The notes: generated by a model from the sequence alone, not told the origin. 64,000 nt of DNA from Ekhidna sp. (GCF_040220215.1 NZ_JAVJTR010000001.1:974-64973), one strand, 5' to 3'; numbered from the stretch's first letter, positions 41,163 to 44,297 are shown. Translations and numbers: made by a program.

Positions 41163-41663
41163 TTAAATGGCAGCTAAAGCTTGTTCATAGTTTGGCTCCT
41201 GACCCACCTCTGGTACAAGCTCTGTGTACTTTACCACCCCATCTTCATCCAGCACTATGATAGCTCTGGCATTTAATCCTTTAAAAGCGCCATCCACAAT
41301 CTCTACCCCATAGTTTTTACCAAAGTCACCACCATCTCGGAAGTTGGTGAGGTTGTCCAGACTATCAATTCCTTCTGCATCACAATATCGTTTTAAGGCG
41401 AAAGGAAGATCTTTTGAAACGCAAACAATTCGTGTATTCGAAAGTTTGGATGCTTCCTGATTGAATTTTTTTGTAGACATGGCACAAACTCCTGTGTCAA
41501 TACTTGGATAAATATTTAAAATTACTTTCTGCCCATGATAACTTGCCAATGTTTTTTCTTTCATGTCCTTGCTTACAAGTGTAAAATCAGAAGCCTGACT
41601 TCCAACTTCAGGAAGATTTCCAATAGTGTTTGTTTCTGTTCCTCCCAGGGTAATTTTAGCCAT
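41163..41663 (-). CDS. tpx: Thiol peroxidase (atypical 2-Cys peroxiredoxin)
   Basis: PSIDTGVC, SKDLPFALKRYC, ARAIIV. Confidence 0.96.
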   Translation of the reverse strand: MAKITLGGTETNTIGNLPEVGSQASDFTLVSKDMKEKTLASYHGQKVILNIYPSIDTGVCAMSTKKFNQEASKLSNTRIVCVSKDLPFALKRYCDAEGIDSLDNLTNFRDGGDFGKNYGVEIVDGAFKGLNARAIIVLDEDGVVKYTELVPEVGQEPNYEQALAAI

Positions 41664-42222
41664 AGTTGTAGGTTTTAAAAGGTGTAATTAAGTAATCTAA
41701 AGGTACGTCCCATTTTTCAGTTTGAATAATACGATCTACAGGAGGTGATAAGGATAACCCCACTCTCAGGGCTTTTGTTTCCTTCAACAACCTATCATAG
41801 TAGCCACCACCATATCCGATACGGTTTCCATTTTGATCAGCAAGCAATAACGGTACAAAAATTACATCCAGATTATCCAAATGAGTTTCCCTGGCATCTA
41901 CTGGTTCAGGTATGCCCTTGCTGTTTTCGAAGAGATCCGTATGTTCTTCCAGACAATAATGATGCATTTGCTTAAACATGAAATCGGTTTTGGAAACGAC
42001 AATCATGATTCTTTTAGCCCAAAGGGATGGGAAAAGAGAAGAAATGTCAGGTTCATTGTTTTTTGCAATCGCTAAAAAAGTATGCAGCTGTTCAACTCGC
42101 TTTTCTTTTATGAATTCAGCTACTGCCTGACATAGCATTTTATTCCGCTGATCATACCACAAACGATCCATTAGGACTCTGTATTGAAGGATAACTTTCC
42201 GTATGTACGTTTTAGTGATCAT
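41656..42222 (-). CDS. ygfA: 5-formyltetrahydrofolate cyclo-ligase
   Basis: DVIFVPLL, RIGYGGGYYDRLL, WDVPLD; ATG 42222 overlaps the upstream TGA. Confidence 0.93.
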   Translation of the reverse strand: MITKTYIRKVILQYRVLMDRLWYDQRNKMLCQAVAEFIKEKRVEQLHTFLAIAKNNEPDISSLFPSLWAKRIMIVVSKTDFMFKQMHHYCLEEHTDLFENSKGIPEPVDARETHLDNLDVIFVPLLLADQNGNRIGYGGGYYDRLLKETKALRVGLSLSPPVDRIIQTEKWDVPLDYLITPFKTYNYG

Positions 42223-42440
42223 CAATCAGGCAGTTCTTCGCATGAAATTCCAAGACTTTTGAGATAGGCGATCATTTCTCTTTCTTCAGACTCCATATAT
42301 GTCTCTACCTTCAATACCTTATCTACATCTTCTAAATCTACCACCCAACGAGCAATTCGCTTATCTTTTTTCAGATCAATTCCAAGCTTGCGTGCTTGCC
42401 AGTTCGTCCGGATGTTTGTTTTTAAAATGAATAGTTTCAT
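42222..42440 (-). CDS. Small HMA-like hypothetical protein
   Basis: WVVDLEDVDKVLKV and GISCEEL pattern; coupled on both sides. Confidence 0.65.
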   Translation of the reverse strand: MKLFILKTNIRTNWQARKLGIDLKKDKRIARWVVDLEDVDKVLKVETYMESEEREMIAYLKSLGISCEELPD

Positions 42441-42673
42441 TTCTCGACAGTTTCTGTTACGTCATATTCAAATACCTCCTCCAATGGTTTTTTAAATACA
42501 TTGGCAATTTTGAAAGCCAGTTCAAGTGAAGGTGAATACTTCCCTTTTTCGATTGCTACTATAGTTTGACGTGTGACTTTCACCGCCTCTGCAAGCTGCT
42601 GTTGTGTCATTTCATTGCTGTCAAAACGAAGCTTTCGAATGTTGTTATTAATATTTTGTCCACTGTTGCCCAT
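42437..42673 (-). CDS. XRE/Cro-family HTH transcriptional regulator
   Basis: MTQQQLAEAVKVTRQTIVAIEKGKYSPSLELAFKIA; start refined to ATG 42673. Confidence 0.93.
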   Translation of the reverse strand: MGNSGQNINNNIRKLRFDSNEMTQQQLAEAVKVTRQTIVAIEKGKYSPSLELAFKIANVFKKPLEEVFEYDVTETVEK

Positions 42674-42674
42674 G

Positions 42675-43121
42675 CTATACTCCTTTGCTATGGTAATACC
42701 ATTTGGAAAGCTGATCAAAAATCTCAGAAGCAATTCCTGCAACTATTAGCGAGATAAACATATACTTGGGGGGATAGCCAAATGCAAGGACAATCAAAGA
42801 AATAAAAAAGCCAGCACCAAAAATGAAATATGAATTTCTCGTTGATTTTAGCTCAATAAGCTTATCACGCTCATCTTCAAAGCCAGCCGTTTTTTCCCTT
42901 GTAATGATGTAATTGCTAATGGCAAATACAGTCATGACTACTATTTTGGTAACAATGGAAATTGGAATTGCTATAAGAATAGCTTTTGACCAAAACTGTA
43001 GCTGCTCATCTGTGGTCATCTCCTGAGCATCAAATCGCTCAAATACGAACCAATAATAAATGGTAAACACAACTATGGTGCTTAGGATATTGATAATACT
43101 TCTTTTTTCCTGATAGTCCAT
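42675..43121 (-). CDS. 4-TM membrane protein (DERD motif, DUF2178-like)
   Basis: FEDERDKLIELK between TM pairs; start refined to ATG 43121. Confidence 0.7.
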   Translation of the reverse strand: MDYQEKRSIINILSTIVVFTIYYWFVFERFDAQEMTTDEQLQFWSKAILIAIPISIVTKIVVMTVFAISNYIITREKTAGFEDERDKLIELKSTRNSYFIFGAGFFISLIVLAFGYPPKYMFISLIVAGIASEIFDQLSKWYYHSKGV

Positions 43122-43134
43122 TTTTAAAGTAAAT

Positions 43135-43217
43135 AAGTAATAATTTTTTGACAAGATGTCTACTATTACGGACATTAAGTTAAAAATGTTTTACTATATG
43201 TAAAAAATATTTTACAT
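43135..43217. promoter_or_regulatory. Array of four 20-bp GT-N12-AC operator-like palindromes with 21-bp period
   Basis: Sites start at 43135, 43156, 43177 and 43198; best site ATGTAAAA-aata-TTTTACAT. Confidence 0.7.
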
Positions 43218-43310: not shown

Positions 43311-44297
43311 ATGAAATTTTTCCCACTTACTTTAATTCTTGTCGTTATATCATGCGTTGATAGCACCACGTCCGAGCAAAAATCTCCCATAGCAAATTCA
43401 CAAACTGTTTGGACAGCAGTTGATACGATTGATATATCGCAAGTAAATGGCAACCTTGAATCAGGCAAATGGACTATGGACGTTGGCATTTATTTTCCCT
43501 CCAATCTTGATCCTAAGTTTGATAAAGTAACGCTACCGAGTGTTATGGAAAGTTTTCGAGCGGCCAAAGAAATTTATGCGCCAACAGGGGTGCAGCTAAA
43601 TCTTTTGTGGGTGAAAACAGGCAAAGTCAATCCTGAATATTTTTCCATTCAGGCAAATGAGGTCCCGGGGATTCCACAAACAGAATATGTGAACATGTAC
43701 GAACATGCTAAAAGACATCCTGCAAGGTTGACCGAGCATGCTAAAGAAGCTTTTGAAAGCATTGTTGAGCCTGCTCCGGATGATCACCGAACGATTTATT
43801 TAGTGGTTTTACAAGATGTTTTTTATCCATTTTTGGAAGTTTCTGAGGGAAGAAACTGGACGATGAGAACTGTCAGAACGGGTGGTCTTTCATTTCCGAG
43901 CTATTCGTATCTAAATACAATTGAAAAGCGATACAGGGGGGTTATTACCCTTACAAACCTGAAGCGGGAAGATCGGCTAAGGGGTACAATTGTTCACGAA
44001 CTGGGACATAAAGTTATGAATGTAAGCCATGAATATAAAAGCACCAATCCGGGGTATGAGATTTTTGCAGATGGAGGTCTAATGCTTTATGGTGATGGGG
44101 AAGATATACCTTCCGGTGAGGAAGGAAGGTGGCACTTAGAAAGGCTACATTTGTCTCCTTATTTATACAAAGAGAATGCTGATGGATCTAAAATTTGGAA
44201 TCCCGATTATGAAGAAGGCGGACATTATTATGATCCGATTTATGGAGAAAAGGTGATCTACTTTGATGCTGTCCCTGAAATTGACGAGGATTGGTGA
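43311..44297 (+). CDS. Lipoprotein with zinc-metallopeptidase motif (metzincin-like variant)
   Basis: Lipobox VISC, HELGHKVMNVSH, downstream GGLMLYG Met-turn candidate; start refined from 43269. Confidence 0.7.
   Translation: MKFFPLTLILVVISCVDSTTSEQKSPIANSQTVWTAVDTIDISQVNGNLESGKWTMDVGIYFPSNLDPKFDKVTLPSVMESFRAAKEIYAPTGVQLNLLWVKTGKVNPEYFSIQANEVPGIPQTEYVNMYEHAKRHPARLTEHAKEAFESIVEPAPDDHRTIYLVVLQDVFYPFLEVSEGRNWTMRTVRTGGLSFPSYSYLNTIEKRYRGVITLTNLKREDRLRGTIVHELGHKVMNVSHEYKSTNPGYEIFADGGLMLYGDGEDIPSGEEGRWHLERLHLSPYLYKENADGSKIWNPDYEEGGHYYDPIYGEKVIYFDAVPEIDEDW

Follow-up and report, generated by a model that had tools for sequence, protein, structure and literature searches.

What is achieved by four palindromes, spaced at exactly 21 bp, that lie between a small operon for a membrane protein and an XRE-type regulator and a divergently transcribed lipoprotein gene? 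This is the question raised by the locus described here, which is located in a 64,000-nucleotide stretch of DNA from an Ekhidna sp. (GCF_040220215.1 NZ_JAVJTR010000001.1:974-64973), the whole of which is called the window below; close relatives place the organism in Ekhidna (Cytophagales). An earlier note on this DNA had interpreted the palindromes as operators through which a lambda-like switch, graded or bistable, would control the two divergent units. We consider it quite probable that dimers of the CylR2-type XRE protein encoded next to the four palindromes use them as operators, and that the sites serve cooperative autorepression by promoter occlusion, nucleated at the site most distant from the operon (site 1). 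Binding by the XRE protein of the window, its cooperativity, and the sign of the regulation are inferred from the sequence of this locus and its relatives.

The operon is a minus-strand chain of five genes, encoding the membrane protein, the XRE protein, a 72-aa protein, 5-formyl-THF cyclo-ligase, and Tpx, and no terminator-like sites were found between them. The genes of the locus are as follows.

41166 to 42225, minus strand: 5-formyl-THF cyclo-ligase and Tpx thiol peroxidase, both with Pfam matches, chained to the cassette
42225 to 42440, minus strand: gene 3, a 72-aa protein with an HMA-like fold (model pLDDT 79)
42440 to 42673, minus strand: gene 2, a 78-aa CylR2-type XRE HTH protein (HTH_3, E 2e-15)
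42678 to 43121, minus strand: gene 1, a 148-aa DUF2178-like membrane protein; four TM helices predicted; DERDKLIELK loop conserved
43311 to 44297, plus strand: divergent 328-aa lipoprotein with an HELGH motif, its signal peptide read from the sequence

The array consists of four 20-bp palindromes with the skeleton GT-N12-AC, which start at 43135, 43156, 43177, and 43198 and thus keep a period of exactly 21 bp. GT at positions 3-4 and AC at positions 17-18 are present in all four, as the earlier note had described, and the pattern proved to be unique in the genome. The array takes up 83 bp of the 189-bp spacer, which runs from the membrane-protein start (43121) to the lipoprotein start (43311), in agreement with the same note, which had it filling much of the spacer, and 13 nt separate the end of site 4 from the membrane-protein ATG. 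A half-site matrix was trained on other genomes only and then scored over this genome; its scores are given below together with the number of palindromic pairs and the position of each site relative to the predicted promoter.

43198 to 43217, no strand: putative operator site 1 (distal), ATGTAAAAAATATTTTACAT; 9 of 10 pairs; 25.1 bits, genome rank 1; overlaps the predicted −33 element
43177 to 43196, no strand: putative operator site 2, AAGTTAAAAATGTTTTACTA; 7 of 10 pairs; 15.5 bits, genome rank 4; its operon-proximal (low-coordinate) half holds the predicted −7 box
43156 to 43175, no strand: putative operator site 3, ATGTCTACTATTACGGACAT; 6 of 10 pairs; 13.9 bits, genome rank 13; over the predicted transcription start
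43135 to 43154, no strand: putative operator site 4 (proximal), AAGTAATAATTTTTTGACAA; 5 of 10 pairs; 13.7 bits, genome rank 17; in the leader

The GT-N12-AC skeleton occurs 128 times in the whole window (~0.002 per bp, i.e., about one per 500 bp), and the only copies in the 189-bp spacer are the four array sites. When all periods from 16 to 32 bp were tested, runs of at least three sites were found in the 4.37-Mb genome at the array locus only. Among 100,000 dinucleotide-preserving shuffles of the spacer, a run of four did not occur and a run of three occurred in five. Chance does not account for the four-site phased array. Because the skeleton motif was picked post hoc, conservation in other genomes is the decisive evidence. 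An RNA element was also considered for the array and rejected: an Rfam search at E values up to 1 returned no match, and the array RNA folds only into weak A/U hairpins, which are made by the palindromes.

In the Ekhidna-like genomes (about three to four were compared, with ~80% membrane-protein identity), an 84-bp block with all four sites aligns nearly base-for-base, and the DNA flanking this block is unalignable. Site 2 is invariant in four Ekhidna-like genomes, and the GTCCGTAAT half of site 3 is kept in Cytophagales. Cytophagales with 30-36% membrane-protein identity, as well as other Bacteroidota classes, have two to five GT-N12-AC sites 21 bp apart, the proximal GT being located about 30 nt before the ATG.

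With the XRE protein as query, 80 loci (68-84% identical) were obtained from Bacteroidota, Ignavibacteriota, Chlorobiota, Bacillota, Chloroflexota, Spirochaetota, Verrucomicrobiota, and Gammaproteobacteria, and in 80 of 80 an open frame, roughly 140-260 aa in length and in most cases about 150-190 aa, ends at the XRE gene. The phasing, whose presence in orthologous promoters the earlier note had singled out as a test, was kept in at least eight phyla: at least two exact phased sites were found in 70 of the 80 loci, nearly all directly upstream of the membrane-protein ORF, at least three in 38, and at least four in 21, while downstream control DNA showed a run of two in 1/80. When three of the four skeleton bases were allowed to suffice, four-site arrays became modal (37 loci), followed by three-site arrays (26 loci). 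The unit profile built from 75 distinct arrays, numbered from the distal end, was as follows.

Unit 1: consensus ATGTAAAAtATATTTtACAT; GT 99%, AC 97%; 28 bits
Unit 2: GT 87%, AC 85%; 21 bits
Unit 3: GT 80%, AC 93%; 16 bits
Unit 4, in about half of the arrays: GT 53%, AC 49%; 8 bits

The units flanking the array on both sides were at background level, so that arrays open with GT and close with AC. This pattern supports the reading of GT-N12-AC as a single dimer site against the alternative AC-N5-GT pairing. A reverse test, a scan of public genomes for the four-site skeleton, found at least eight homologous membrane-XRE operons among the first 120 matches listed, in four other phyla (Bacillota, Chloroflexota, Planctomycetota, and Pseudomonadota); the matches listed were mostly chance occurrences and tandem repeats, and the test is anecdotal only.

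The array coincides with a predicted promoter. A sigma-70 scan of the spacer gave promoter-like sites no more often than in shuffles; because the organism belongs to Bacteroidota, the sigma-70 consensus is the wrong one for this purpose. Two boxes could be assigned with the Bacteroidota consensus, and both are degenerate in this window.

43175 to 43182, minus strand: predicted Bacteroidota −7 box, TAACTTAA (consensus TAnnTTTG), at the junction of sites 2 and 3
43202 to 43204, minus strand: −33 element position in site 1, reading TTT (consensus TTG), with a 19-nt spacer to the −7 box

Of the 42 Bacteroidota arrays, 19 have a perfect TAnnTTTG between position 15 of unit 2 and position 1 of unit 3, and 26 have TAnnTT there, with the −7 box 19 nt after the TTG position of unit 1; this TTG-19-TAnnTTTG form is the −33/−7 grammar of Bacteroidetes. 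The −33/−35 position reads TTG or TTGACA in 10/42 Bacteroidota, 7/7 Ignavibacteriota/Chlorobiota, and 11/11 Bacillota arrays. All 11 Bacillota arrays have TTGAC(A/G) in unit 1 (positions 14-19) and TAnnnT in unit 2 (positions 16-21), boxes that with their 17-bp spacer form a canonical sigma-A promoter. The operator positions are thus constant, and the boxes embedded in them take the form of each lineage, which makes these arrays, with fixed operators and boxes switching between sigma-70 and Bacteroidota forms, a neat case of promoter-operator co-evolution. From the consensus only, a minus-strand transcription start around 43165-43170 is predicted for the operon, so that site 1 would lie over the −35/−33 element, site 2 together with the site 2/site 3 junction over the −10/−7 element, site 3 over the start region, and site 4 in the leader. 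The conservation of sites 1 and 2 is partly due to the promoter boxes.

The site consensus is a 20-bp inverted repeat, ATGTAAAA-N4-TTTTACAT, in which the centres of the GTAAAA/TTTTAC hexamers are separated by 10 bp inside a site and by 11 bp from one site to the next. With this spacing, eight half-sites that alternate in orientation follow one face of the helix for 83 bp. Two dimers on neighboring 20-bp sites, which are 1 bp apart, would touch. The scores of 13.7, 13.9, 15.5, and 25.1 bits from the proximal to the distal site bear out the claim of the earlier note that the match improves away from the XRE operon; judged by these bit scores, which are sequence proxies for affinity, site quality drops monotonically toward the gene. 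Site 1 is the best match genome-wide, 9 bits above the runner-up (16.0 bits), and the remaining matches lie mostly within long open frames; no further convincing intergenic site was found in the whole-genome search for a wider regulon. The regulator thus appears to serve its own promoter alone. Under the autorepression that we favor, the XRE protein would nucleate on the near-perfect site 1, a rising XRE concentration would fill the weaker sites 2 to 4 cooperatively, and the filled array would occlude RNA polymerase and block the start, switching the operon off by sharp, cooperative negative autoregulation.

The XRE protein resembles CylR2, the regulator of the Enterococcus faecalis cytolysin locus, in sequence and predicted fold. 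It matched CylR2 (1utx) over residues 9-71 (phmmer E 1e-12), and its AF2 model (pLDDT 86.9; strands 7-10 and 68-71, five helices) superposed on 1utx with a TM-score of 0.89 and an rmsd of 1.2 Å at 45% identity in the structural alignment. The model superposed equally well on DR_2454 of Deinococcus radiodurans (9k3w), for which we found no citing paper. In the 80-locus set, the recognition helix TRQTIVAIEKGKYSPS does not vary as long as the site consensus is retained, a constancy that fits the near-invariant consensus of site 1 and rules out a covariation test of helix against half-site. In six loci from Alteromonadales, SRQTV was found in place of TRQTI, together with GTC in place of GTA half-sites and irregular spacing (e.g., 27 bp); this pairing, which is confounded by phylogeny, is a possible change of specificity.

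CylR2 was described as a repressor that binds at its promoter region, and cylR1, located upstream, encodes a small membrane protein needed for induction; CylR1 is thought to relay a signal without phosphotransfer (PMC3709268). The window resembles this system in that its regulator is a single-domain XRE protein of the same size class (about 66-78 aa) and in that the XRE gene stands right behind a gene for a small polytopic membrane protein. Unlike CylR1, with three predicted TM helices, the partner here has 148 aa and four TM helices and is DUF2178-like; unlike at the cytolysin locus, the divergent gene encodes an HExxH lipoprotein, and there are no lanthipeptide genes among the neighbors. We found no literature report of a four-site 21-bp array for CylR2.

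Experimental data exist for a palindrome of the same type. In a survey of XRE proteins, palindromes upstream of XRE genes were clustered and some were put to EMSA, and Motif_24/25 is given as WATGTAAAGTWWACTTTACATW, with about 2.2 per upstream region (PMC12565409). According to the same survey, the XRE protein G4P54_09295 binds ATGTAAAGTACACTTTACGT (probe ttataATGTAAAGTACACTTTACGTtaagg), and with G-to-A and C-to-T changes in the skeleton the shift became weaker or disappeared (PMC12565409). The exact probe sequence is absent from species-representative genomes. In Paenibacillus, ATGTAAAGTACACTTTACGT, near-identical to the probe, lies directly upstream of a 54%-identical XRE gene that is followed by a gene for a 164-aa membrane protein, and from this look-alike locus we infer that G4P54_09295 is related to the XRE protein of the window. 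The sites described here share with Motif_24/25 a 20-bp palindrome of the form ATGTAAAG-N4-CTTTACAT with ATGT...ACAT ends and GT-N12-AC, located beside a homologous XRE gene, and site 1 matches the Motif_24/25 core at 17 of 20 positions by direct count. Neither the 21-bp phasing nor the promoter register is mentioned in the passages of that paper available to us (PMC12565409).

The other genes of the locus are conserved to different extents. Homologs of gene 1 were found in 90 of 96 loci; its match to Pfam DUF2178 is marginal (23.6 bits against a cut-off of 22.8), and in a whole-genome search the Pfam model, which is too weak for a phylum-wide search, misses the membrane protein of the window itself. 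The stop of gene 1 lies 4 nt inside the start of the XRE gene, i.e., the two overlap. A homolog of gene 3 follows the XRE gene in 46/96 loci, those recognized belonging to Bacteroidota, Ignavibacteriota, or Chlorobiota. The predicted model of gene 3 has the topology beta-alpha-beta-beta-alpha-beta and compares with copper-chaperone/HMA domains at TM-scores of 0.72-0.81; the protein is without the MxCxxC metal site (no CxxC motif), C67 is the one Cys that is nearly invariant, and a Pfam search gave no match. The cyclo-ligase and Tpx genes are located downstream of the cassette solely in 8 Ekhidna-like loci of the 96, and they may be read through from the array promoter. In several Bacteroidota relatives (three loci), the cassette is followed by a medium-chain dehydrogenase/quinone oxidoreductase-like gene, and in Ekhidna by Tpx, a faint hint of redox-related cargo behind the cassette.

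The lipoprotein adjoins the cassette in 3/96 loci, which come from two other Ekhidna-like genomes (two loci from one genome), and judging from this distribution it is outside the conserved module. Searches of Pfam and NCBIfam assigned it to no family. It bears HELGHKVMNVSH and gave a weak capP match only (E 0.001, over 32 residues around HExxH); the protein may be a member of an undescribed family of exported zinc peptidases. A repressor-cleaving partner of the ImmA/IrrE or CapP type (as in ImmR/ImmA and CapH/CapP) was considered and rejected, because the HExxH protein is a lipoprotein with no Pfam match and the pairing is not conserved. A defense system was also rejected, as PADLOC returned generic HTH matches only.

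Three other explanations of the array deserve comparison with cooperative autorepression. The lambda-like switch, in which an array common to the XRE operon and the HExxH lipoprotein gene would set both graded or bistably, draws on the 189-bp spacer common to the two divergent genes, on graded sites of which the best is nearest the lipoprotein gene, and on the same divergent arrangement in the two other Ekhidna-like genomes. What decides against it is that the locus has one HTH gene only and no Cro-like antagonist, that all four sites fall inside the promoter and leader of the XRE operon, and that the 93 bp from site 1 to the lipoprotein ATG are unconserved. The lipoprotein is not beside the cassette in the remaining Ekhidna genomes or at any other locus, the family profile shows only background at unit 0, which faces the lipoprotein gene, and cooperative negative autoregulation alone does not give bistability. 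We therefore regard such a switch as highly unlikely: with one regulator, one overlapped promoter, and a divergent gene that is not a conserved neighbor, the bistable control of two units put forward in the earlier note is unsupported, whereas its reading of the palindromes as graded operators of the adjacent XRE protein is probably right, judging from the sequence. An incidental effect of the array on the lipoprotein promoter is possible in this genome.

The remaining two explanations concern the promoter itself. Phased A/T tracts might curve the DNA or act like an UP element with no dedicated repressor, and a G+C content of 25% in the array region, AAAA/TTTT tracts recurring each 10-11 bp, and core boxes embedded in sites 1 and 2 speak for such an intrinsic architecture. 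The invariant positions are, however, the skeleton G, T, A, and C and not the A-tracts. Conservation and symmetry also extend to parts without a promoter role, namely the left half of site 1 and the whole of sites 3 and 4; nowhere else in the genome does the pattern occur, and it is always found with one regulator family. In addition, the site of a relative is bound in EMSA via those same skeleton bases. We give this explanation hardly any weight. There is also a slim chance that the XRE protein binds but activates, or acts both ways, site 1 recruiting polymerase and full occupancy repressing, as for CI at PRM. The weak promoter boxes of this window (TTT and TAACTTAA) would suit an activator, and GakR, a homologous CylR2-like regulator, was reported in a preprint to regulate positively even though its site and the −10 element overlap. 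Against activation, CylR2 itself was described as a repressor (PMC3709268), and sites 1 and 2 lie directly over −33/−35 and −7/−10 in every lineage, which is the classical geometry of occlusion.

By analogy with what is thought of CylR1 and CylR2, the co-translated 4-TM protein may modulate the repressor from the membrane, a suggestion that we put at somewhat less than an even chance and that draws on context, namely translational coupling and the conserved DERDKLIELK loop; the distribution of positive charges predicts that this loop is cytoplasmic. A 4-TM partner of this kind would make the cassette a phosphorelay-free sensor-regulator pair. A broader proposal, which we consider rather unlikely as a whole, is that of a portable, phosphorelay-free module present in many phyla, in which the 4-TM loop would hold or release the repressor and the 84-bp promoter-operator block would give a sharp on/off response through nucleation at site 1 and spreading along one face over sites 2 to 4. 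Since derepression would raise both partners, the circuit could be pulse-generating or switch-like. If the proposal is true, the block has been rewritten from sigma-70 to Bacteroidota grammar with no operator moved.

Autoregulation by XRE dimers on promoter palindromes is textbook knowledge. In lambda OR1-3, 434, P22, and PBSX Xre (with four operators), HTH dimers bind cooperatively to adjacent, unequal palindromes over a promoter. The array resembles that of lambda CI/Cro in having adjacent operators of graded quality (sequence proxies in our case); it differs in that there are no two antagonistic divergent repressors and that the operators are not common to two promoters. Phage-type switches have two antagonistic regulators or two promoters on common operators, and irregular spacings, whereas the locus described here has a single regulator and a single promoter, its sites keep to a strict 21-bp period, and it is a chromosomal cassette of non-phage type that includes a membrane partner. 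The ARG boxes of ArgR, two 18-bp palindromes 3 bp apart and thus 21 bp centre to centre, are similar to the present sites in that the palindromes are two helical turns apart, with all subunits on the same side of the promoter DNA; ArgR itself is an unrelated, winged-helix hexamer that typically uses two boxes and depends on a co-repressor.

For the sister YoaS (DUF2975)-YozG operon, inverted repeats in an AT-rich upstream region were read in a 2026 preprint as autoregulatory operators (10.64898/2026.09.15.751765). That operon likewise combines a membrane protein with a small Cro/C1-type HTH protein; it differs in the families of both proteins, and its repeats are sequence-diverse, with neither phasing nor site number given. 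As an element kind, a multi-operator XRE autorepressor is ordinary, and the palindrome type is already catalogued and, in a paralog, EMSA-tested (PMC12565409); the gene family is uncharacterized, and no paper that mentions DUF2178 was found in the literature searched. Earlier descriptions of a strict 21-bp array of three to four sites, of a fixed register with lineage-changing boxes, or of the spread across phyla were not found either. What the analysis adds is a precise cis-regulatory map, covering four sites, the promoter register, and a predicted nucleation site, for a very widespread and unstudied pair of a small membrane protein and a CylR2-like XRE protein. It turns annotations of the type "hypothetical protein plus HTH" into a directly testable autoregulatory circuit and offers a tractable non-pathogen model for how CylR1-type membrane proteins signal to CylR2-type repressors.

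The relatives with Motif_24-like sites are differently organized. When genomes were scanned for the Motif_24 core, 61 of 120 loci had a CylR2-like XRE gene no farther than 1.5 kb away, among them loci of CPR bacteria, Asgard archaea, and Methanocellaceae. In these loci the XRE gene mostly comes first and the membrane gene second, and the sites are for the most part single or in overlapping pairs offset by 16 bp; the 21-bp array of three to four sites thus marks a membrane-gene-first subfamily, to which, judging from its gene order and sites, this window belongs. In five XRE-first relatives from Bacillales, two sites at the 16-bp offset share ACGT (e.g., ATGTAAAGTACACTTTACGTAAAGTTAGCTTTACAT; L253:4453-4493 among them). 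Metagenome-assembled genomes (MAGs) of Pseudomonadota contain recurrent ATGTAAAGTCGACTTTACAT or ATGTAAAGTCAACTTTACAT, mostly within CAAA...TTTGG (13 loci; several copies in one MAG). No CylR2-like XRE gene was found within 1.5 kb of these copies, which may represent a different kind of repeat or be targeted by a more distant regulator. On six Asgard/Methanocellaceae contigs, the ATGTAAAG...CTTTACAT core stands beside a CylR2-like XRE gene, so that the regulator/operator pair extends into the archaea, and on three of these contigs a weak membrane-protein match was found behind the XRE gene.
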